Source: Acaryochloris marina MBIC11017 (GTDB lineage: Bacteria > Cyanobacteriota > Cyanobacteriia > Thermosynechococcales > Thermosynechococcaceae). Taken from it: a stretch of 32,000 nt of DNA. A program made the translations under genes and the position numbers. The notes beneath the pieces are model-generated. The model had not been told where the DNA came from. It did not search any database and saw only the letters and a list, made by a program, of their open reading frames with translations. Position 1 is the first letter of the stretch. Every line of letters starts with the position of its first letter. Shown piece after piece: positions 5,559 to 18,436 of the stretch. Where the stretch lies: the NCBI RefSeq assembly GCF_000018105.1, contig NC_009925.1, positions 4,170,001 through 4,202,000 of the forward strand, in the 5' to 3' direction.

Positions 5559-5999
5559 TTATAGGGTTAAAGCAAAATGATTAAACGTCTGATCCAGCTG
5601 ATAGCCCAGGGACTCATACAGGGCTTGAGCTGCAGTATTGGTCTTTTCAGTAGCTAATACTAAGCGTATCGCTCCGGTCTCTCGGCCATAATTGGCGGCT
5701 GTCTGCATCAATTGGGTGGCAATACCTTGCTGGCGATGGGAAGGGAGCACAAATAAGTCGTTTAAAATCCATACCCGCCCCATTGAGACGGAAGAAAAAC
5801 TGGGGTAAAGCTGGGTGAACCCAACGCCACTGTCTTCATCTATGGCGAGGAAGATGGTGGAATCTTGATTGCGAAATCGGTCAGCGATAAACTCCTCGGC
5901 TGCATGGACATTGGAAAGCTGGTGATAAAACACTCGATAGTGGTCAAATAACATGGCCACATCAGCAAGATGGTCTGTATTGGCTAACACGATATTCAT
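5559..5999 (-). CDS. GNAT-family N-acetyltransferase
   Basis: 146 aa. It carries the acetyl-CoA binding motif A (HRQQGIATQLMQTA) and a C-terminal AQALYESLGY. Confidence 0.8.
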   Translation of the reverse strand: MNIVLANTDHLADVAMLFDHYRVFYHQLSNVHAAEEFIADRFRNQDSTIFLAIDEDSGVGFTQLYPSFSSVSMGRVWILNDLFVLPSHRQQGIATQLMQTAANYGRETGAIRLVLATEKTNTAAQALYESLGYQLDQTFNHFALTL

Positions 6000-6018
6000 A
6001 TGAAGAGACTCGTATCAG

Positions 6019-6654
6019 CTATTTTGTAAAGCCTTGTTCTAAGAGGATTCTAGCAATTTTAGCTTTGTGGGCTGCTTCCCATTCTTCGAGGGATTGAGAT
6101 GCATCTTTGACGGTTCTTTTGTAGGTGATCTCGTAAACATGGGCTTGGTCAGCCACTGGAATAACGGCTATTCCCTCTTCGTCCGCAACGATAATATCTT
6201 GAGGATGAACGTGTACCCCGCCACAATGAATCGGTTTGCCCAGGGTTCCCAAGGTTTGTTTGACGCCGGGGATGGGACTGACCCCTCTTGCAAAAACAGG
6301 GAATTGGGCTGCTCGAACTTCAGCGATATCTCGGATCACACCATCAACGACAAAACCAGCAATCTGCCTCCTTTGGGCAATAGCACAGACATTCCCGCCT
6401 GAAACGGCATAGTCTACATTGCCGGCTTCGACGACGATGACGCTCCCCGCTGGGGCACGGTATATTGCGGCATGGAGCATCAAGTTGTCTCCAGGTGGAC
6501 AGCGTACGGTGTAGGCGGGTCCTGCAATTCTCGGCATTTGAGGCCAAAGTTCTTTAATGCCAATGTCCATAAACTGCTCGCGGCCTAAGGCATCTGCATA
6601 GGCTGTTGGCGATAGTTTCCTAAGTTCAGTGTAATCAGGCATGTCTCGTTTCAT
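6019..6654 (-). CDS. RraA-family protein (4-hydroxy-4-methyl-2-oxoglutarate aldolase / oxaloacetate decarboxylase-like)
   Basis: 211 aa. It shows a typical RraA/DlpA pattern: GPAYTV, GDNLMLHAAI, GSVIVV, SGGNVCAIAQRRQIAGFVVDGVIRD, and ADEEGIAVIP. It lies 19 nt upstream of the GNAT gene on the same strand. Confidence 0.8.
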   Translation of the reverse strand: MKRDMPDYTELRKLSPTAYADALGREQFMDIGIKELWPQMPRIAGPAYTVRCPPGDNLMLHAAIYRAPAGSVIVVEAGNVDYAVSGGNVCAIAQRRQIAGFVVDGVIRDIAEVRAAQFPVFARGVSPIPGVKQTLGTLGKPIHCGGVHVHPQDIIVADEEGIAVIPVADQAHVYEITYKRTVKDASQSLEEWEAAHKAKIARILLEQGFTK

Positions 6655-6895
6655 TCAAGTGTGCTTGAAGTCGTGGAAATGGGTACTCTAATTGCAGTTA
6701 GGCATTGCTCCAATAAGGCTTCTCCCCTTCTTTAGGTTGTGCGCTACTTTCTACAACCATGAATCTAACTTCCAGGCCGACAATCGGTCTTTACCCGATA
6801 TTCATACCAATCTCTTGTGCGCTAAGCACCGCAAAAGATTGAGAGCTTGTTATAGTTAAACGGCTTTGTAATACTTTCAGGATATTAAATCAGAC

Positions 6896-7804
6896 ATGAG
6901 GCAGTTTTCGCCCTTGACCATTATTTCTTACATCATTGGCCCCATTCTGATTATCGTTAGTCATATTGGATCATTATTACTCTTCAATACGGGATTATCT
7001 TTTGGTGCCCTGGCATGGATCGTATTTTTATATCTGATCCGTATGTTAGCTACCACTGGTATTTATCATCGGCTCTTAACCCATAAAAGTTATCAAGCGC
7101 CAGCCCCTGTTCTATGGATTGGTTGTGTTGTCGCAGCGGCGGCAGGACAAATGGGGCCGAGTTGGTGGAAAGCACACCACCTTACCCACCATAAACATAC
7201 GGATCAACCGCAAGATCCTCATTCTCCTTATTCCCCAGTCCAGAAGGTTGGGGGGGTTTATTGGTCTCAAGGGGGGTGGCTTTTATCTTCTACGTTTTTG
7301 CCTGATCAGTTACCGAAAGATGTTGAAAGTGACGTAGTATTACGAGTCCTGGATCGTCTCCACTTTTTACCTGTTCTAGCCTTGGCCGCACTGTCCTATG
7401 GAATAGGAGGTATAGAATATTTGGGTGCATTTTTCCTCAGTACAACATTGCTATTTCATGGTGTTCAAACTGTGAATTCTCTCAGCCATATTGTGGGAGA
7501 ACAACCTTTCGCGACGAAGGATCATAGCCGGAATAATTGGCTAGTTGCCGTGTTGACTTTGGGAGAAGGCTGGCATAATTTACACCATGCATTTCAAACC
7601 TCTAGTCGACAGGGTATTACGATCAAAGGGGGTAAGGTTCGGTATTTGCCTGACCCCACCTTCCGCTTTATTAAAGGGCTGGAATCTTTGAAGTTAGCCT
7701 CTAAACTCAGAGTGCCAACGGAAACCACTTTGTTGGCTCGCGCCAAGCTTGTAGGCGAGCCTACAAGCTTGGCAGCCATCGTAGAGAGTCCAGCGCATTC
7801 CTAG
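6896..7804 (+). CDS. Membrane fatty-acid desaturase, Delta9 (acyl-CoA/acyl-lipid) type
   Basis: 302 aa. Three His boxes are present in the canonical order: HRLLTH, HHLTHHKH and GEGWHNLHHAF. The N-terminal half is hydrophobic. Confidence 0.8.
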   Translation: MRQFSPLTIISYIIGPILIIVSHIGSLLLFNTGLSFGALAWIVFLYLIRMLATTGIYHRLLTHKSYQAPAPVLWIGCVVAAAAGQMGPSWWKAHHLTHHKHTDQPQDPHSPYSPVQKVGGVYWSQGGWLLSSTFLPDQLPKDVESDVVLRVLDRLHFLPVLALAALSYGIGGIEYLGAFFLSTTLLFHGVQTVNSLSHIVGEQPFATKDHSRNNWLVAVLTLGEGWHNLHHAFQTSSRQGITIKGGKVRYLPDPTFRFIKGLESLKLASKLRVPTETTLLARAKLVGEPTSLAAIVESPAHS

Positions 7805-7997
7805 GGGATGTTAATAGGCGTACTGGTGCTGTACCCTTGTCGTTTCTGATTATTGATGACTACTATTGGGTATGGCAGGTTGCCTTGAAAAAGGTTGGAA
7901 ATACTGCTCCATAAGCATCGCTGACGTCAATGTCTAGACTTTTTAGGAATATTGAATGGATGAGAGCTATCCAGCTTTCTAGAAGAGTCCAAAAGCA

Positions 7998-8210
7998 ATG
8001 ACTCTGAACCGCTTTGATCGAGCATGGATTCAGTGTCGCTTAAAGTCACTAATGGCGGATGGCAAGCCCCTGGAGGATGCTATACGAATCGCCTTTGTGG
8101 AGGATGGCATTGGTATGATGCCACTTTGGCCAGCTGTTCAATCGGTTGCTCAAGTCAATGCACGAGAGGCGAAGCGAATTGTTATACGGGCTATTAGACA
8201 TAGGTCTTAA
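7998..8210 (+). CDS. Small hypothetical protein (70 aa)
   Basis: Support is an ORF only. The composition is plausibly helical and I recognised no motif. Confidence 0.3.
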   Translation: MTLNRFDRAWIQCRLKSLMADGKPLEDAIRIAFVEDGIGMMPLWPAVQSVAQVNAREAKRIVIRAIRHRS

Positions 8211-8259
8211 GGCTAAACAGTTGGGTTGGTGGTCAAGCAAAACTCATGCTACTAGGCAG

Positions 8260-8693
8260 ATGACGCTGTTCTTCATGTGTCTTTTAGTACTGTCTGGGTG
8301 CCGACCCAGCGTGGAATCTAGAGGTTCAACTGTTCCACGTAATGCAAGAGAGAAGGCTATTTTTGATTATTTCTCTGCATTGCGGGAGCAACGTTATGAG
8401 GACGCTTATCAACTCCGTACCTTGAACCTTAGCCCGTCTTCTCCTTCCCCCAAAGACTTCTTGTATTTCAAGAAACCTATCAAGAAAACCATGCGCCTTT
8501 GGCAACTCAAATTGCCGTTGGTGAGGAAGAACGGTGGTATGGAGATGGCCCCTGTGCATACATTTATACCGTTTATGCTGTTGAACCAGGACATACCACT
8601 TTAGTGAATGGTATGGTCAGTTTGCATTCAAAACCTGATCAATCTGAAGCGTGCCTTATTGGTTATAACTCTGCGTTTGGTTTTTCTCCTTAG
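8260..8693 (+). pseudogene. Small lipoprotein gene interrupted by a frameshift (or sequencing error)
   Basis: The ATG at 8260 gives MTLFFMCLLVLSGC, a signal peptide plus lipobox Cys. This frame becomes non-protein-like after ...FKKPIKK and stops at 8604. A second frame, open from 8433 to 8693, reads HAPLATQIAVGEEERWYGDGPCAYIYTVYAVEPGHTTLVNGMVSLHSKPDQSEACLIGYNSAFGFSP. The switch is most simply placed at the A4 run at 8485-8488. Confidence 0.5.
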
Positions 8694-8720
8694 GGACATC
8701 TCCTATAGCGATGGGGGCTG

Positions 8721-9036
8721 ATGAATCCTCCTGTTAAAGAAGAACTGATTACCCAACTGGCAAAGCGTTTGGCTATAGAAGTTCTGTCGATTGTGCATTA
8801 GTTTGAAGCAGATCATCCTTACGATCAGATGTATGCTTTTGCATTGATAGCTCCTGCTGAAGGGACATGTATTGGTGTTGCGATCGCAACTGAATAAACC
8901 TGAGCAACAGTCGCTCAATCCTATCTCCAGAAAGGCTATCAGGCATAACAGGCGATACGCTTGCCTGACTACGTTGAGTCTACGATGGTCCAAGTTGGTA
9001 TTACGAATATTTTCCTGAACCGTTCTCGTTGCTTGA
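8721..9036 (+). pseudogene. Decayed DUF4303-like gene with several in-frame stops
   Basis: The + frame from the ATG at 8721 reads MNPPVKEELITQLAKRLAIEVLSIVH*FEADHPYDQMYAFALIAPAEGTCIGVAIATE*T*ATVAQSYLQKGYQA*QAIRL. A shifted frame further on contains LRWS. The pattern (YAFAL..., ...TEE..., ...LRWS) resembles DUF4303 proteins as I remember them. The first stop is the TAG at 8799-8801. Confidence 0.45.
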
Positions 9037-9083
9037 GCAACATCAAAACACAAAAAATTAATTCTATCTACTCAGTTTGATGT

Positions 9084-9719
9084 ATGAATAAAGTGACAAA
9101 AGAACAACTTGAAATGCATATTGCTGAGTCAACAGTCCATGATGCTGGGCCATACTCTAATCTTGAAGTCCCAGTAGTGATGTCCTATCCTGAACCGGAA
9201 TTCATGGCGAAGTGGGTTCATCCGTTCTATCTGACAAGCACCATGACTCGGTTTACTGAGTTTCAACATTCTTATTCTGAAATACGAAGCCAGATCGATT
9301 CAGCTTTGATTAGCAAACTTCTCACATATTTTAATTGGCGTCCACGTAAGGTTGGCTCATACTTCGCAGCCATTGAAAATTCCAAGGAGCATTGCCAGCA
9401 TATCGGTAGATTACTCCTACGTTCTGATGTCCGTTATGCGGGTCAGGCCCATGCATTAGCACTGGCTCAATTCAATACAAACGATTCCATTTCATATTTG
9501 TGTAAATATCTAGACCACTATCTACAGCATCCAGAACTCCAATTCGATCAAGGTGCTGTATATGGCGCTGTAGTCTACTTAGATACCCAAAATGGAACGA
9601 AACTAGCGAAGAAATACACCGAGCAGTGGCACAAATTTGCAAAGGGCAGCTCAAACTGTGTTGATGGCATGGCCAAGCTGCTTGAATCTATTAGGGGTTT
9701 ATCCAGTGGTCCCGCATAA
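9084..9719 (+). CDS. Hypothetical protein (211 aa), no family recognised
   Basis: This is a clean ORF with an ATG start. It is AT-rich: a hand count of 9081-9140 gives 20/60 G+C. It has no TM segment or signal peptide. Confidence 0.65.
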   Translation: MNKVTKEQLEMHIAESTVHDAGPYSNLEVPVVMSYPEPEFMAKWVHPFYLTSTMTRFTEFQHSYSEIRSQIDSALISKLLTYFNWRPRKVGSYFAAIENSKEHCQHIGRLLLRSDVRYAGQAHALALAQFNTNDSISYLCKYLDHYLQHPELQFDQGAVYGAVVYLDTQNGTKLAKKYTEQWHKFAKGSSNCVDGMAKLLESIRGLSSGPA

Positions 9720-9825: not shown

Positions 9826-10764
9826 CTACGATTGCCGTTCCCGACTGAGCAAAGCCACACTAAAGGTGACCAAAATAACGCCGAAAATTTGCAGAGGCTT
9901 GAGGGTCTCTTGAATGGCGAACCAGGCCAGAACAACCGTTAACGCTGGATTGGTAGCCCCGATAATGGATGCCGTGGTGGCCCCAATTAAACGAATGCCC
10001 ATATTGTTGAGCAGATGCCCACTAGATGTGGCAATCGCTGACAACAAGCCCCCAATCCATAATGGCCCCCACTCAATGGCCTCAGGCTGTGTCCAGAACA
10101 GCAAGCTTAAACAGGACAAGACCAGCGTAACCGCAAAGCTAATCCAGGTATAGGGAATAGGATGGACCTGCTCAAAGCTTTTTTGAGCGAGAACCGTATA
10201 GATGGCATAGGCAACCCCTGAACCAATTCCCAAGCCAACCCCCAACGCATTAGCCGTTAATCCAGTTTGAGGAACCGTAAGGGCACTGCCGACCAGGACT
10301 AATCCCATGACCGTCCAGCGAAATCGGGAGGGCGCAGTACCAAAGAAGTACCAGGAGAGAAGGGCTGTAAAAACGGGAAAGGTGAAAAATAGGGTTAGGG
10401 CAATTCCGGTTGGAATCAGCCCCACTGAGAAATAGAGCAGTGCCAGGTAGAGGTACATAAATACGCCACCCAACAGAGATCGCATTAGGTCAGGACGATT
10501 CTGCTTTTGAGCCAGCTTTCTTAAGTCCCACCACAACGAAGGGTAAAACAGCGGTGTCATGGCTGATACCAACGGCACCACCCACACCATCCGCATCGCC
10601 ATTAACAAAAAAGAGTTGGGGAGAGAAGGGGCAACGAACCCTCCCGTTTGCAGCAGGCCAGCAACGGTGTATTCGTTAAAGAGAATGCGGACGATAACGT
10701 TTTGAAAACAAAAAAAGACGGCGCCCAGTAAGACGATCAGAAAACCAATCATAGTCTGGGGCAA
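9826..10764 (-). CDS. DMT-superfamily (EamA-type) permease
   Basis: The protein has about 10 hydrophobic helices in two similar halves. The ORF begins at a TTG at 10764, but the ATG at 10752 (MIGFLIVLLG) is the more likely start. Confidence 0.85.
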   Translation of the reverse strand: MPQTMIGFLIVLLGAVFFCFQNVIVRILFNEYTVAGLLQTGGFVAPSLPNSFLLMAMRMVWVVPLVSAMTPLFYPSLWWDLRKLAQKQNRPDLMRSLLGGVFMYLYLALLYFSVGLIPTGIALTLFFTFPVFTALLSWYFFGTAPSRFRWTVMGLVLVGSALTVPQTGLTANALGVGLGIGSGVAYAIYTVLAQKSFEQVHPIPYTWISFAVTLVLSCLSLLFWTQPEAIEWGPLWIGGLLSAIATSSGHLLNNMGIRLIGATTASIIGATNPALTVVLAWFAIQETLKPLQIFGVILVTFSVALLSRERQS

Positions 10765-11066
10765 CTCATAAATCAGCCTTTACAAAGGTCGGCTTGATTT
10801 TAGGTAAGGCACCTTTTATCTTTTGCAAACAATCCATGGGGTGGAAAAATAGGTAGTCAAAATTTATTCTTGAGAGTATTTTTACAGAAAATTTTTCTGA
10901 ATATTAGTTGTATCGCGTTATAGGTACAACACATCAAAAATGAACAAAATAAATCTCTTAAAATCTTTACGGGAAGCGGATCGCAATAAATTTATTCTCG
11001 TAAGATGAAAGCCTAAAACAATGGTGTCAACCTAACGAGTCATTTTTAACCACTGAATATCTCTAG

Positions 11067-11097
11067 AAAAACTCATATATTTCTCATAAAAACTCAT
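11067..11097. promoter_or_regulatory. Phased CTCAT / AAAAACTCAT repeats upstream of the Cys-repeat gene
   Basis: AAAAACTCAT occurs at 11067-11076 and again at 11088-11097. A third CTCAT lies at 11083-11087. CTCAT therefore starts at 11072, 11083 and 11093, about one helical turn apart and about 90-115 nt upstream of the ATG at 11185. Confidence 0.25.
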
Positions 11098-11184
11098 TTA
11101 GTCTTCAGGCTACCCTTATTCAACTTCTTTTAACTATTTAAGAGTAGGTTTTGAACCGACCCATTGATTTCTGGAGTTCTATGT

Positions 11185-11508
11185 ATGAAAGTCAAATATT
11201 TAGCGTTACTGGCCTCTACCTCTATGTTGACCGTTGGGGTCGCCACAACAACTCTCATTTCTCCCCCAACCCATGCTAATCCTTGCGCTGCTGCCGTAGA
11301 TAATCCCTGTGCTGCCAAGAATCCTTGTGCTGCTAAAGACCCCTGTGCGGCTAAGAACCCCTGTGCTGCTAAAGACCCTTGCGCTGCCAAGAACCCCTGC
11401 GCCGCCAAAGACCCCTGTGCTGCCAAGAATCCCTGCGCTGCTAAAGACCCCTGTGCGGCTAAGAACCCCTGCGCCGCCAAAGACCCTTGTGCTGCTAAAA
11501 GCTACTAA
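11185..11508 (+). CDS. Secreted cysteine-repeat protein: signal peptide followed by NPCAAAVD + 11 x (N/D)PCAAK + SY
   Basis: The ATG at 11185 gives MKVKYLALLASTSMLTVGVATTTLISPPTHA, a Sec-type signal ending in an AXA-like THA. It is followed only by hexapeptide repeats. The gene has the same orientation as the downstream YHS-domain gene. Confidence 0.7.
   Translation: MKVKYLALLASTSMLTVGVATTTLISPPTHANPCAAAVDNPCAAKNPCAAKDPCAAKNPCAAKDPCAAKNPCAAKDPCAAKNPCAAKDPCAAKNPCAAKDPCAAKSY
11302..11499 (+). repeat. Tandem 18-bp (36-bp super-period) coding repeat, 11 copies
   Basis: The repeat alternates aaY ccN tgY gcN gcN aaR and gac ccN tgY gcN gcN aaR. The copies differ only at third codon positions. A degenerate leading copy lies at 11278-11301. 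Confidence 0.95.
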
Positions 11509-11622
11509 CTCATCTCTAGTAATGAGGGTGCTTTAAGTGCAGCATTATTCTTTGCTTATGTAAGTGCCCTCAAGTTGTTGAGTGGTCAGTCACAGCTGTT
11601 TTGAAATACTAAGTTTTGACTG

Positions 11623-12180
11623 ATGTATTGTTTTGGAGCAAAATCCGTGAACCCAAACCGTCTGCCTAAAATCGCCTTATCTTCTATCGTACTTTTGGGG
11701 GTGGTTTCTACCGTTCCCTCTATTACTCGCACCGGAGAAATAGCAACTGCTAATCCAGCATCTGAAGCTGCTGCCCCTACTGCAGCTATTTTTGCGGAAG
11801 ATGGGATTGCTATTCGCGGAACGGATCCAGTGGCATACTTTACAGAAGGTCGTCCTGTCCAAGGGGTCCAAGACTATGCCTATGAGTGGCAAGGGGTAAC
11901 CTGGCTATTTGCCAATGCCAAGCATCGAGACTTATTTGCGAGTAATCCAGAAGCCTATGCTCCTCAATATGGTGGATTCTGTGCCTATGGGGTGAGCCAA
12001 GGGGCGTTAGTTGCAATTGTGCCGGAAGCCTGGGCAATCGTGGATGGCAAGCTGTATTTGAACTTTAGTGCGGATGTGCAGCAGCTTTGGCAAGAAGATA
12101 TTCCTGGCTATATTTCCCAAGCGAATCAAACTTGGCCGACGTTAGCCTCTAAAAACGCCCAAAGCAACCTATCTTATTAG
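11623..12180 (+). CDS. Secreted/anchored YHS-domain-containing protein
   Basis: 185 aa. It has an N-terminal hydrophobic segment (KIALSSIVLLGVVSTVPS), followed by GTDPVAYFTEGRPVQG, WQGVTWLFANAKHRDLFASNPEAYAPQYGGFCAYGV and DGKLYLNF. This is typical of the family annotated as YHS domain-containing (seleno)protein. An alternative GTG start at 11647 is preceded by GGAG. Confidence 0.8.
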   Translation: MYCFGAKSVNPNRLPKIALSSIVLLGVVSTVPSITRTGEIATANPASEAAAPTAAIFAEDGIAIRGTDPVAYFTEGRPVQGVQDYAYEWQGVTWLFANAKHRDLFASNPEAYAPQYGGFCAYGVSQGALVAIVPEAWAIVDGKLYLNFSADVQQLWQEDIPGYISQANQTWPTLASKNAQSNLSY

Positions 12181-12263
12181 TCAGGGTTGGAGAAATCTGA
12201 ACAGCCCTTTTTAGCTATGGGGTGTAAGCAGTGAACTTTTTGCTCAAGATAGGGTTATTCAAT

Positions 12264-15200
12264 CTAACCTGCTTCTACTAAAGCTTTCTCGACTTCAGGT
12301 AAGGCACCCTTCATTTTGCCTAGCCAGTCGATCAGGCTTTCCAATTGGCGGTCGGCTTTCATAACGCCAAGCCCTCGGACCGTTACCTTACCGGGGAAGT
12401 ATACGAAACGCGATCGCAAATGTTCAGGTAGATTCTCCTTTAGTAACTTAAAGGCGGGTTCTTCCATTGGCGTTTCCAGCATCACATGCTGTTTATCCTC
12501 TGGTTTGATCCGCGAGAAGCCCAAGGATTTTGCCAACTGCTTAAGTTCCATAATCCGCAATAGCTGTTGGGCTGAATCGGGAATCGGACCATAGCGATCG
12601 TTCCAGTCCACGGCGGTTTGGGTAAGGTCGGCTTTGGTCTCTGCTGAAGCCACCGCCCGATAGGCACTCATCTTTTGATCCAAATCGGTAATGTAATCGG
12701 CGGGAATAAAGGCCGTCAGATTGAGATCCACCTGGGCCTCATCTACCTGAGGAATTTCTTGACCGCGAATTTCATTGATGGACTCGTCCAGCATCTCCAT
12801 ATAGAGGTCAAAGCCGATGGCCTCCATTTGCCCGGACTGTTCCGCCCCTAGCAAATTACCGACGCCCCGAATTTCCATATCCCGCACCGCCAACTGATAG
12901 CCGGACCCAAGCTGGCTAAACTCTTGTAGCGCCCGGAGCCGCTTGCGAGCCTTCTCCGTCAGTGAACTTTGATTGGGATAAAACAGCCAGGCGTGGGCTT
13001 GAATCCCAGCGCGCCCCACCCGACCTCGGAGCTGATAGAGCTGGGAGAGGCCAAACTTTTGGGCATCTTCGATCAAAATCGTATTGACGCGGGGAATATC
13101 CAGTCCCGATTCAATAATGGTGGTGCAGACTAGGATTTCGGCATCGCCATTGCTAAAGGTGAGCATCGTCGCCTCCAACTCCCCCTCTACCATTTGACCG
13201 TGGGCAATGGCAATCCGCGCACTGGGCACCATTTCCCGCAGCTTACCCGCCACTTCTTCGATTCCTTCCACTCGGGGCACCACATAAAAAATCTGGCCGC
13301 CTCGGTCTAGCTCTTGGCGAACAGCACTGCGAATCGATTCTGGATCGTAGGGAGACAGATGGGTTTTAATCGGACGACGAGAAGGGGGTGGAGTGGTAAT
13401 CAGGCTCATTTCTCGTACCCCAGATAGGGCCATATATAAGGTACGAGGGATGGGGGTGGCGCTAAGGGTGAGCACATCCACTTGGGTTTTTAGGGTTTTG
13501 ATTTTCTCTTTTTGGTTCACCCCAAACCGCTGCTCTTCGTCGATCACCAGCAGGCCCAAATCCCGGAAGTTGACGCTTTTGCCTAGGAGTTGATGGGTGC
13601 CAACGACAATATCTAACTCCCCGGTTTTGAGGCGGTTTTGAATGTCTTTGCGTTCTTCGGCACTGCGGAACCGATTGAGGAGACCGATTTGAATCGGGTA
13701 GGGGGCAAAGCGTTCTTTTAGGGTGTGGTAGTGCTGCTGGGTGAGAATGGTCGTAGGTGCGAGAAAAGCTACCTGTTTACCTGCAGTCACTGCTTTAAAT
13801 ACCGCACGGGTGGCTACTTCGGTTTTACCAAACCCGACATCCCCACACACCAGCCGATCCATCGGGCGAGGATTTTCCATATCCCGCTTGACGTCTTGGG
13901 CGGCTTTGAGCTGGTCGGCGGTGGGCTGATAGGGGAAGGAGTCTTCCATCTCTTCTTGCCAGGGCTGATCGAGGGGAAAGGTAAATCCCTCCTGCTGAGC
14001 CCGCTGGGCATAGAGCTTGAGCAGATCCACCGCCAGCTTTTTAATGGACTTGCGAACCTTATTCTTGGTTTTCTCCCAGGCTTTCCCCGACATTTTATTC
14101 AGCTGGGGGCGCCCTTCTCCGGTATTGCGAAATCGAGATAAGGAGCCTAATTGATCCGCCGCGACTCGCAAAGTGCCATCGGCGTATTGCAATACCAAAT
14201 ATTCACGGGTCTCGTGATTAAGAGTCAGACTTTCTAATTTCAGGAACTTGCCAATGCCATGATTTCGGTGAACGACAAAATCTCCCGGTTGGAGCTTGTT
14301 CGGATCGACTTTTTTAGAGGTGGCTCGTCGCCGTTTGCGAATATAGGTGGGAGTTGCCAGGGTATGCTGACCGAAAAACTCGCGGTCTGTAATCACCACC
14401 GTGCGGAAGGTGGGCAGCACAAAGCCTTCGAGTTCTGCTAACCCAGAATATTTAAGGGCAACGGGAGTGTGATACTCCTGCAATTTGTCGATGGCGAGGT
14501 AATCTTTGGGATTGGGTACAAACTGGGCAGGACAGTCATGCTCCTGCAACAGGGCCACGGATCGAGAGGGTTGAGCGGAGATGAGCCAGATACTGAATTT
14601 GCGATCGCGCTCCTCCCTAATAGTCTCGGCCAACTTGCCAAACTGGTGAGGCACTGCAGGCACGGTCCGACTGGAAAGGTTTAAGCCACCCTTCTCCTCC
14701 GCCAACTCCGACAAAAAGACTCGCTCAAACACTTCAATTTGATCCAGAGCGGCCTCGAAATCTTGGTGCAGCTTCGGCAGCGGAGCCTCCGGTAAACTCA
14801 CGGACTCCCATTGCTCTTGGGCATGTTCTACCCAGCGATTGCTATGAGGACGACATTGCATGGGTTCATCGACAACCACCAGCGTATTTTCCGGCAGGTA
14901 ATCTAATAGAGAAGCAGGCGTCTCAAAGGCCATCCCCAGGAACCGCTGACTACCTTCTAAGGTTCCAGTTTCTAAGAGAGCCAGTTCCTCTTCTGTTAAG
15001 TAGGCTTTGACTTGGGCCTGTTGGGCTTCACTTAGAGACGCTAAGGTAATCGGGGCAAAGCTAGTCGGCGTCAGAGTGAGCTTTTCACTACTATCCAAAG
15101 ACCGCTGACTGGTGGGGTCAAACTCCCGCATTTTATCCAGCTCATCCCCAAACCACTCCAACCGAATGGGCAGCTCGGAAGCCACGGGAAAAATATCGAC

Positions 15201-17998: not shown

Positions 17999-18436
17999 TC
18001 AATCAGTGACTGTGAGTTTAATATTGGCACCGTCTGGCAAGTCTTTTATCTGTTCCGCAAGATCGCCTGAGTATGCGATGACTTCTGCACGAGTCATAGT
18101 GTCGATATTATCTCGACTATATGCCCCTCCCCAAATACTAGGAACCTTCAAACAATAACAGTGTTCAGGTGGGAGCTTGCCGTAGAGTTCTTGCCCTATC
18201 TCAATAAGTGTGGACATTTCCCAATCGGTACGAAACTCTTCGTCATTAGAGAGTTCGTCCATCTCTTCAGCATTTGTAGCAATGATTTCACAGTACAGAT
18301 CTTCAGGACAAATTCGCCAGTATGTACCTACATCATCGAGAACAATCAAATTTCCAAAGTCATTTTGCGCGACAATCTTAGCCGCTTGAATCCCACACCA
18401 ACTCCAAGATTTCTGAACTGTGACCAGTAAATCCAT
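17999..18436 (-). CDS. Tdi1/DUF1851-like (T6SS-immunity-type) small protein
   Basis: 145 aa. The pattern FGNLIVLDDVGTYWRICPEDL, then CLKVPSIWGGAYSRDNI, then ...YSGDLAEQIKDLPDGA resembles the DUF1851 / Tdi1 C-terminal domain as I remember it. Confidence 0.55.
   Translation of the reverse strand: MDLLVTVQKSWSWCGIQAAKIVAQNDFGNLIVLDDVGTYWRICPEDLYCEIIATNAEEMDELSNDEEFRTDWEMSTLIEIGQELYGKLPPEHCYCLKVPSIWGGAYSRDNIDTMTRAEVIAYSGDLAEQIKDLPDGANIKLTVTD

Follow-up and report, generated by a model that had tools for sequence, protein, structure and literature searches.

A tandem NPCAAK cysteine-repeat protein of Acaryochloris as a candidate periplasmic poly-thiolate arm

A 32,000-nt stretch of the genome of Acaryochloris marina MBIC11017 (contig NC_009925.1; hereafter the window, at its full length) contains a gene for a small poly-cysteine protein, predicted from its signal peptide to be exported, whose mature part is built almost entirely of [N/D]PCAAK hexapeptides. 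The gene is real, the peptide of its repeat array is under purifying selection, and the repeat is a widespread but undescribed module, forming a large family without a name or a curated model. With the gene directly downstream, which encodes a YHS domain-containing (seleno)protein, it very probably makes up a functional pair, as judged from sequence. All of the evidence converges on what would be a thiol-based function in the periplasm. The reading we favour, with a probability of roughly 40%, sees in the protein a disordered poly-thiolate arm of the periplasm that would capture thiophilic metals, with a cysteine/selenocysteine (Cys/Sec) or thioredoxin (Trx) partner to service it; what is shown is the anatomy and the genomic associations, from which the function is inferred.

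The coding sequence comprises 107 codons and a stop, and translates as MKVKYLALLASTSMLTVGVATTTLISPPTHA, followed by NPCAAAVD, 11 units of [N/D]PCAAK and a terminal SY. Its elements are as follows.

11173–11176, plus strand: ribosome-binding site GGAG, 8 nt before the ATG, read from the sequence; the 85 nt upstream are conserved in four orthologues
11185–11508, plus strand: coding sequence of the repeat protein, stop codon included, read and translated
11185–11277, plus strand: predicted Sec-type signal peptide of 31 residues, with an MKVK n-region, a hydrophobic core and a putative cleavage site between THA and N
11278–11301, plus strand: degenerate first unit NPCAAAVD, from the translation
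11302–11499, plus strand: array of 11 hexapeptide units [N/D]PCAAK, with an 18-nt period, a 36-nt super-period and variation only at wobble sites

Translation bears out most of what an earlier model had described from the letters alone (the sequence-only reading): a 31-residue signal, here too a prediction, and a 76-residue mature product made of NPCAAAVD, 11 units and SY, with 12 cysteines. Two details need correction. The alternation of N and D is not perfect, as the first two units are both NPCAAK; the order is NPCAAK NPCAAK DPCAAK and then NPCAAK and DPCAAK in turn to a final DPCAAK. Likewise, the fixed six-residue spacing between cysteines holds for ten intervals, the first being 8 residues. 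The signal peptide is homologous to the MK[VIL][KN]YLAT...G signal and lipoprotein peptides that cyanobacteria have on stand-alone proteins and on fusions to Trx or YHS; the lipobox cysteine of relatives (VATAC) is replaced in the window protein (VATTT).

At the DNA level, Tandem Repeats Finder reports periods of 18 nt (10.9 copies) and 36 nt, and all 11 matches in the window to CCNTGYGCNGCNAAR, a degenerate pattern for PCAAK that was expected there 0.02 times, fall within the array. Nine distinct DNA units are found among the 11, with a mean pairwise identity of 80%; all six third-codon positions are polymorphic, and the other 11 positions of the 18-nt unit are invariant apart from an A/G change that toggles N and D. 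Third-position variation under an invariant peptide is thus as first described. The conclusion drawn from it, that the repeat is held by selection rather than being a fresh slippage product, stands as far as purifying selection on the peptide goes; the strand does not follow from it, and copy number is still dynamic (4–11).

The strand requires separate evidence because an antisense open reading frame (ORF) at 11130–11480 (minus strand), with an LAAQG[FS] repeat, shares its wobble positions with the sense frame and is just as invariant, so that synonymous variation indicates selection on some peptide and leaves the strand undecided. Indeed, at the homologous locus of Picosynechococcus PCC 7002, RefSeq/PGAP annotates the antisense ORF (SYNPCC7002_RS16885), and the GenBank record holds the sense protein (ACB01201.1). 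We chose the plus frame on four grounds: the GGAG placed 8 nt before the ATG, the signal peptide, homologues in which the repeat is in frame with real domains, and synteny around the repeat protein, which is kept in five Acaryochloris orthologues. That the antisense ORF is the coding frame, or that the array is non-coding, is extremely improbable: the ribosome-binding site, start codon and signal peptide all lie on the plus frame; in dozens of homologues this frame continues into Trx, cytochrome c, DM13, YHS or BufA1 domains; and the antisense ORF begins at a TTG within the array and carries a 1-nt indel in its 3′ part in one Acaryochloris relative (L001). An antisense ORF through the array was also noted in L030 (6219–6515, minus strand), and antisense calling may be a systematic mis-annotation across the repeat family.

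Searches of Pfam and NCBIfam with the repeat protein gave sub-threshold noise only, in agreement with the earlier view that it contains no other domain; a sequence search of the PDB gave no meaningful match, and a literature search on NPCAAK-type motif strings and on the PCC 7002 locus tags G0158–G0162 found no relevant paper. The claim that it belongs to no characterised family therefore holds for curated models and literature, but the protein is not an orphan. A homology search of a 5.8-billion-sequence set returned 457 related proteins, and a separate search returned 396 clusters at 50% identity. Neighbours, which the sequence-only reading had asked to see tabulated, were surveyed over 116 loci, 73 of them of at least 5 kb, and orthologues are present in five Acaryochloris genomes. 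More than 600 metagenome stretches, a lower bound, match the repeat, and 433 of these were confirmed. We use as a working definition of the NPCAAK-repeat module a Sec or lipoprotein signal plus at least three tandem x-P-C-A/G/S-x-x units at a spacing of about six residues. The window protein has all of these, and directly downstream lies a gene for a candidate redox partner whose domain is repeat-fused in at least seven other proteins.

Stand-alone proteins (177 distinct, each of at most 135 residues) have mature parts consisting of 26% Ala, 16% Pro, 15% Cys, 14% Asn and 13% Lys, with 3–15 cysteines, a modal cysteine spacing of 6 and N-P-C as the constant core. The orthologue ACB01201.1 is encoded on plasmid pAQ7 of PCC 7002. 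A single-sequence AlphaFold2 (AF2) model of the window protein has a predicted local distance difference test score (pLDDT) of 49.5 and predicts no fold.

The gene that the sequence-only reading of the neighbourhood overlooked is the one immediately downstream, whose domain is elsewhere fused to the same repeat.

11523–11572, plus strand: intergenic hairpin between the repeat gene and the YHS gene, from the folded alignment of four Acaryochloris orthologues
11647–12180, plus strand: YHS domain-containing (seleno)protein, predicted periplasmic, matching NF041384 at 2e-48 (163 bits against a 70-bit cutoff)

YHS is described in Pfam as a presumed metal (copper) binding domain. The gene encodes its own signal peptide and a conserved GGFCAYG cysteine, the position of which is selenocysteine in some taxa (PMC13188914). 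It lies 115–139 nt downstream of the repeat gene, depending on its start, which is ambiguous: an ATG at 11623 would give 185 residues, and a GTG at 11647 has a GGAG 8 nt upstream and agrees with the 177-residue orthologue of Acaryochloris sp. 'Moss Beach'. In at least seven proteins (P0126, P0172, P0281, P0285, P0288, P0291 and P0305), a signal peptide resembling that of the window repeat protein is followed by [N/D]PCAAx repeats and then by an NF041384 domain (146–160 bits), a Rosetta-stone link which argues that the two window genes act together. In two loci of proteobacteria (L076 and L108), a YHS gene is likewise found close to cytochromes with NPCAAK tails. We rejected YHS as a universal neighbour, as tblastn over the first 29 loci recovered it in Acaryochloris only; the fusions and the two proteobacterial loci were recovered later. 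The YHS family has at least 7,916 homologues, and no relative with a solved structure was found. An AF2 model of the partner from 36 sequences has a pLDDT of 67.5, and a Foldseek search of the PDB with it gave nothing below E = 0.04, turning up only the 27–34-residue YHS motif of toluene/phenol monooxygenase hydroxylases.

The hairpin between the two genes shows one-sided changes only among the four orthologues and is followed by no T-run; intrinsic-terminator prediction did not pick it up, and no Rfam family matches it. A role in processing or stability is conceivable, as is one in partial termination. Scans of 10700–12400 for Rfam families, tRNAs, promoters and canonical terminators gave nothing informative.

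The gene order of a fatty-acid desaturase, with EamA (minus strand), the repeat protein, the YHS protein and Mfd (minus strand) following, is kept in Acaryochloris metagenome-assembled genomes and in the complete genome of Acaryochloris sp. 'Moss Beach'. Repeat-protein orthologues are 96% (L005) and 89% (L004) identical, with two more in L001 and L118; in the A. marina of our comparison, the YHS gene is present without the repeat gene. Across five close relatives the proteins have 11, 11, 11, 9 and 4 units, and the N/D order and C-terminal ends vary. Together with the constant peptide of the unit, this range implies that the unit is conserved while copy number turns over.

Such drift in copy number would also suit a simple tether, in which the repeat is a low-complexity spacer between an anchor or signal and a domain, and the window gene is a fission remnant of a repeat–YHS fusion with little function of its own. 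In the fusions, the repeat occupies the place that S/T/P/E/A-rich linkers hold in other cyanobacterial YHS proteins (P0319, P0353 and P0336), AF2 predicts no fold for it, and the window signal peptide resembles those of the fusion proteins. We nevertheless regard a mere spacer as distinctly unlikely, given a peptide so strictly conserved that only synonymous change is seen, cysteines that are invariant in hundreds of proteins across phyla around the N-P-C core, and at least 177 distinct stand-alone genes, several of them in complete genomes. Further, repeats occur at C termini and at both ends of cytochromes, where a tether is not needed, and stand-alone copies lie beside tailed paralogues in operons.

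Across homologues, the repeat is found either alone or as an N- or C-terminal tail on periplasmic redox domains. Besides the YHS proteins, it is fused to thioredoxin-like lipoproteins (WCxxC; TIGR01068-like) in Pseudanabaena, Rivularia, Calothrix and Sphaerospermopsis, runs in frame into DM13 domains and cytochrome P460, and is also in frame with PDZ_2/DUF5666-like and TPR proteins. One BufA1–NPCAAK fusion sits inside a canonical bufferin cluster of BufA1, MNIO, DUF2063 and DoxX (L031). In a Pseudanabaenales locus (L012, 6978–9539, plus strand), a Trx-like gene, a stand-alone repeat gene, a repeat–Trx fusion and CcdA follow in tandem; the stand-alone gene encodes 73 residues and has lost the lipobox cysteine, like the window protein. 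This operon seems to capture the family's domains in the course of splitting or fusing.

Within the metagenome loci, the arrangement met most often (49 ORFs) is a monohaem cytochrome that carries repeats at one end or at both, in many cases beside a stand-alone repeat gene. The cytochrome core scores 36–43 bits against the Pfam family SoxA-TsdA_cyt-c (cutoff 27), and its profile matches SoxA (1h31_A, E = 8e-8) and also the haem-1 domain of TsdA. By residue counting in the alignment to SoxA, the histidine of CxxCH falls on His80 and the invariant cysteine of EMVQxCMVxPM on Cys114, the two axial ligands of SoxA haem 1. These cytochromes form a conserved family (L006–L009, L032, L034, L038 and others) with the signature LSTNGLSCxTCH...PYPHxVxM...EMVQxCMVxPMAAKPLxWDSKELAALTAYT, on which NPCAAK tails are always present. 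A tblastn search of plasmids with the core gave a single partial, unannotated match, in Cupriavidus KK10 beside a CcdA homologue.

These fusions bring in the main rival to the favoured reading, a possible though on balance unlikely one: that the arm works as a thiol/disulfide or sulfane-sulfur relay without binding metal, its cysteines cycling among thiol, disulfide, persulfide and thiosulfonate states. By analogy to SoxY with SoxAX, it would offer a catalytic partner a carrier with many sites or a store of electrons; the partner would be the Cys/Sec YHS protein in this window, and His/Cys-haem SoxA/TsdA-type cytochromes or thioredoxins elsewhere. The cytochrome data just given are what such a relay would lead one to expect, as is the redox nature of the fusion partners (Trx, haem c, P460 and DM13). 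Many neighbours are also of a sulfur or thiol type, among them YeeE/YedE (13 loci), DUF302 (28), Trx/CcdA, CMD/AhpD, DoxX, FGE-sulfatase, a CDO-like cupin and GGT, and the YHS family NF041384 and DUF3179 both have selenocysteine members, which are typical of redox catalysts (PMC9312934, PMC13188914). Set against this, the cytochrome partner is absent in cyanobacteria, this window included, the surveyed loci showed no sox, dsr or sqr genes, and a role of the tail cysteines as substrates of the haem domain is putative. A relay would also leave the mer and bufferin links and the MerR regulators, described below, without explanation.

Among neighbours of the repeat genes, thioredoxin-fold proteins were named as the commonest. 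In cyanobacteria, stand-alone lipoprotein forms adjoin a cytoplasmic 3-His cupin with weak CDO_I similarity, often together with a histidine kinase and an OmpR-type regulator; the kinases beside the repeat genes in PCC 7002 and L003 can be aligned from one end to the other with the heavy-metal sensor family TIGR01386, at scores below its cutoff. The cupin (SPIHNHxxWG...DAIH; L002 5161–5766, minus strand; L003 5020–5676, minus strand; L020 7303–7905, plus strand; L024 5568–6200, minus strand) is usually accompanied by a two-component system or by a pair of extracytoplasmic function (ECF) sigma factor and RskA. An unusual regulator, a MerR-family helix-turn-helix domain fused to CbiC (precorrin-8X methylmutase), lies just upstream of the cupin and NPCAAK genes in Rivularia/Calothrix (L017, L019 and L020, about 5941–7117, plus strand). 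The Trx-fused forms of cyanobacteria have CcdA/DsbD_TM after them and an ECF sigma factor with an RskA anti-sigma factor before them, and Trx plus CcdA is also found in Nitrosomonas and Gallionella loci.

In a recurrent proteobacteria-like cluster, DUF6969 (37 loci), a cytoplasmic, His-rich protein (QYYYHAHR...EHGHFHTF), accompanies a stand-alone repeat gene and a cytochrome with tails. The idea that the cyanobacterial cupin is a counterpart of DUF6969 was dropped, the two being non-homologous (hhalign probability 0.1). Other members of the cluster are the periplasmic DUF302 (28 loci), an ECF sigma factor (15), DUF3179 (14), a multihaem cytochrome (14), YeeE/YedE (13), a periplasmic 155-residue protein (YSCPLNPTPDY; 12), CcdA (6–10), FGE-sulfatase (8), DoxX (4–5) and redoxins. 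Loci of this kind include L007, L032, L034, L068, L076, L079, L102 and L109–L111, with the ECF sigma factor paired with a DUF3379 anti-sigma factor. FGE-sulfatase or EgtB-like genes recur a few kb at most from NPCAAK genes in L002 (EgtB, 1–855), in L036 (FGE-sulfatase plus Methyltransf_33, 7610–9497) and in 8 metagenome loci, and some are accompanied by EgtD-like methyltransferases of the ergothioneine type; this recurrence may be chance or may be thiol-related. Literature searches on DUF6969 and on Cys repeats of mer operons found nothing specific.

The links that point to metals are with mercury-resistance and bufferin genes. Five independent loci have genuine mer genes next to their NPCAAK genes.

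L009/L022: merR-merTPA
L010: merR, directly upstream of repeat genes on the same strand, with a score of 157 bits (equivalog cutoff 150.85 bits)
L109: merR-merT
L115: merA, merP and merT on one strand; merR and, 111 nt downstream, a stand-alone repeat gene on the other strand
L032: a merA-like gene

Two of the MerR proteins exceed the TIGR02051 equivalog cutoff. By our estimate, chance would place mer genes within 6 kb in about 0.2 of the 73 loci, and adjacency of either kind, mer or bufferin, would amount by chance to a small fraction of one locus in the survey sample. Bufferins are periplasmic copper-sequestering peptides (PMC11626156), and bufferin clusters lie beside NPCAAK genes in L076 and L079, where MNIO within a few kb is paired with a separate BufA1 gene, and in L108, which has a BufA1 gene. 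These neighbours, the BufA1 fusion and the five mer loci all support an arm for metals, and the recurrent Trx, CcdA and DsbD_TM genes support its reductive upkeep. Overall, the metal-capturing arm is the sole model that covers the mer, MerR, bufferin and YHS links as well as the reductive-maintenance genes.

In this mechanism, cleavage of the signal peptide would release the 76-residue product into the periplasm, where 12 cysteines, one per [N/D]PCAAK unit, would be displayed on a disordered, proline-kinked, lysine-rich chain. Their thiolates would capture soft metals, such as Hg(II), Cu(I) and possibly Cd or Ag, and the arm would buffer the captured metal or hand it on. A Cys/Sec or thioredoxin-type partner would then keep the arm reduced or unload it: in this genome the downstream YHS (seleno)protein, elsewhere Trx/CcdA. 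Of the functions proposed in the sequence-only reading, a thiolate metal buffer thus gains comparative support from the mer operons, MerR, bufferin clusters and YHS, and a polysulfide or redox carrier from the SoxA/TsdA-type cytochromes, Trx/CcdA and YeeE, in both cases as a function that these associations suggest. Metal capture and redox relay are not mutually exclusive.

Several observations weigh against capture of metals. First, family scans found no metal transporters or regulators in the 32-kb window, mer or bufferin genes occur in a minority of loci only, and DUF6969, DUF302, YeeE/YedE and cytochromes, counted as the commonest neighbours, have no established metal role. Second, the chemistry is unusual: one cysteine in six residues with no CxC or CxxC is unlike metallothioneins, and periplasmic Cu(I) proteins usually use Met and His, free thiols tending to oxidise. 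Enrichment of His and Met, tried as a metal signature, gave a weak signal only, the stand-alone homologues having 0.7% His and 0.8% Met, which is not clear enrichment. Third, the repeat genes downstream of merR on the same strand (L010 and L115) need not be Hg-induced. Finally, every fusion partner is redox-active, so the redox relay fits equally well.

Secreted Cys-repeat proteins for envelope metal or thiol stress are a known kind, with bufferins, oxazolins, MerP and Csp1 as examples. Bufferins and oxazolins (Buf_EGKCG), MNIO-modified periplasmic copper-binding members of the RiPPs, peptides made by ribosomes and modified after translation (PMC11626156, PMC12452194), share with the NPCAAK proteins a Sec signal, a small or low-complexity chain and many single-Cys repeats with Lys or Gly (EGKCG versus NPCAAK). 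Both are periplasmic, the NPCAAK proteins by prediction, and have DoxX and ECF sigma genes among their neighbours in genomic settings of metal stress. Residues 1–31 of the window protein form a predicted Sec signal, which suggests a periplasmic destination; the protein was not matched by BufA1 (PF10048) in the Pfam and NCBIfam scans and differs from the EGKCG motif by inspection. The window and almost all loci lack adjacent MNIO (DUF692) and DUF2063 genes. Bufferin cysteines are MNIO-modified, whereas those of NPCAAK proteins are presumably unmodified and kept reduced by Trx/CcdA, and the NPCAAK repeat is mostly a tail on redox domains.

A second kind of modified peptide also invites comparison. 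Freyrasin-type ranthipeptide precursors carry repeated C-x3-D motifs, and the window protein has CAAK[N/D] in every unit. It has a Sec signal in place of a leader, there is no radical-SAM/SPASM gene in the window and none recurs in the 116 loci, and, unlike in those precursors, the repeats also tail large proteins. The multi-core precursor that the sequence-only reading had listed as its least likely option is not supported here. We consider it very unlikely that the repeat protein is a RiPP precursor, with cysteines converted to thiooxazoles by MNIO, as in bufferins and oxazolins, or to Cys-to-Asp/Asn thioethers by radical-SAM enzymes. Sec-exported precursors with repeated single-Cys motifs do exist (bufferins and Buf_EGKCG/oxazolins; PMC11626156, PMC12452194), the one BufA1–NPCAAK fusion adjoins MNIO, and the C-x3-[N/D] motif is maintained throughout the array. 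Yet, as noted early on, no maturation enzymes are nearby: the 32-kb window has no MNIO, DUF2063 or radical-SAM gene, MNIO adjoins a repeat protein in only 1 of the 116 loci and is nearby in 3, and radical-SAM genes there are limited to two ArsS-like and one MoaA. Moreover, the repeats mostly decorate folded periplasmic proteins rather than leader–core peptides.

The likeness to SoxY/SoxAX and TsdA consists of cysteine on a flexible arm and a SoxA/TsdA-type His/Cys-haem cytochrome, the tailed cytochromes being found in other taxa. SoxY carries one cysteine in a C-terminal GGCGG on an Ig-like fold, whereas the NPCAAK family has 3–15 cysteines on a disordered chain; the window protein ends in ...DPCAAKSY, and the window contains neither sox genes nor a cytochrome partner. 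MerP and the NPCAAK proteins are both periplasmic thiol proteins, linked through the five loci with merR/merTPA genes. MerP folds as an HMA domain and has a single GMTCxxC site; for the window protein there is no HMA match, no CxxC and no predicted fold, and most NPCAAK loci, the window included, lack mer genes. Metallothioneins (SmtA/BmtA) and Csp1/Csp3 are likewise small and rich in Cys, with sequestration of soft metals either proposed or demonstrated, and Csp1 is exported. Metallothioneins are cytosolic, with CxC/CxxC clusters and a defined metal-cluster fold, whereas the window protein has a signal peptide, no Pfam match and no CxC or CxxC. Csps form four-helix bundles lined with Cys; a proline every six residues, the C-x5-C spacing and the AF2 model argue that the NPCAAK chain has no fold. 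Pfam and PDB searches showed no similarity of the window protein to metallothioneins or Csps. What is new here is a repeat without a curated model that is not MNIO-associated and is appended as a tail, in modular fashion, to cytochromes, thioredoxins and Cys/Sec proteins.

Elsewhere in the window, three further genes are without explanation: those for a DUF6000 protein (9084–9719, plus strand), for a protein with a Tdi1 (type VI secretion system immunity) C-terminal domain (17999–18436, minus strand) and for a 152-residue ORF with no family match (8146–8604, plus strand). The rest is housekeeping (Ffh, aminopeptidase P, GT4, RraA, GNAT, desaturase, Mfd, UDG and a 2OG-Fe(II) oxygenase).

A broader proposal, which we put forward tentatively, is that NPCAAK arrays are an unrecognised, modular poly-thiol swinging arm, either free or grafted onto SoxA/TsdA-like cytochromes, P460, Trx lipoproteins, DM13, BufA1 and YHS proteins. 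With DUF6969, DUF302, DUF3179, YeeE and CcdA, they might define a new periplasmic pathway in cyanobacteria and proteobacteria for soft metals (Hg/Cu) or for sulfur and selenium, acting through haem- or Sec-catalysed chemistry on protein-bound thiol adducts rather than through simple sequestration.

The repeat ties several large families without assigned function, namely the YHS (seleno)proteins, DUF6969, DUF302, DUF3179 and the SoxA/TsdA-like monohaem cytochrome, into what may be one system. Many of its genes would prove to be mis-annotated on the wrong strand or missed through low complexity. A 12-thiol, fold-free and genetically encodable peptide might find use in metal capture or biosensing, and the pAQ7 orthologue of Picosynechococcus PCC 7002 offers a tractable model. 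If the favoured reading is true, hundreds of small 'hypothetical' genes would gain a role in envelope metal or thiol defence, and the repeat proteins would be accessory to mercury-resistance islands and would accompany the bufferins, copper metallophores of recent discovery.

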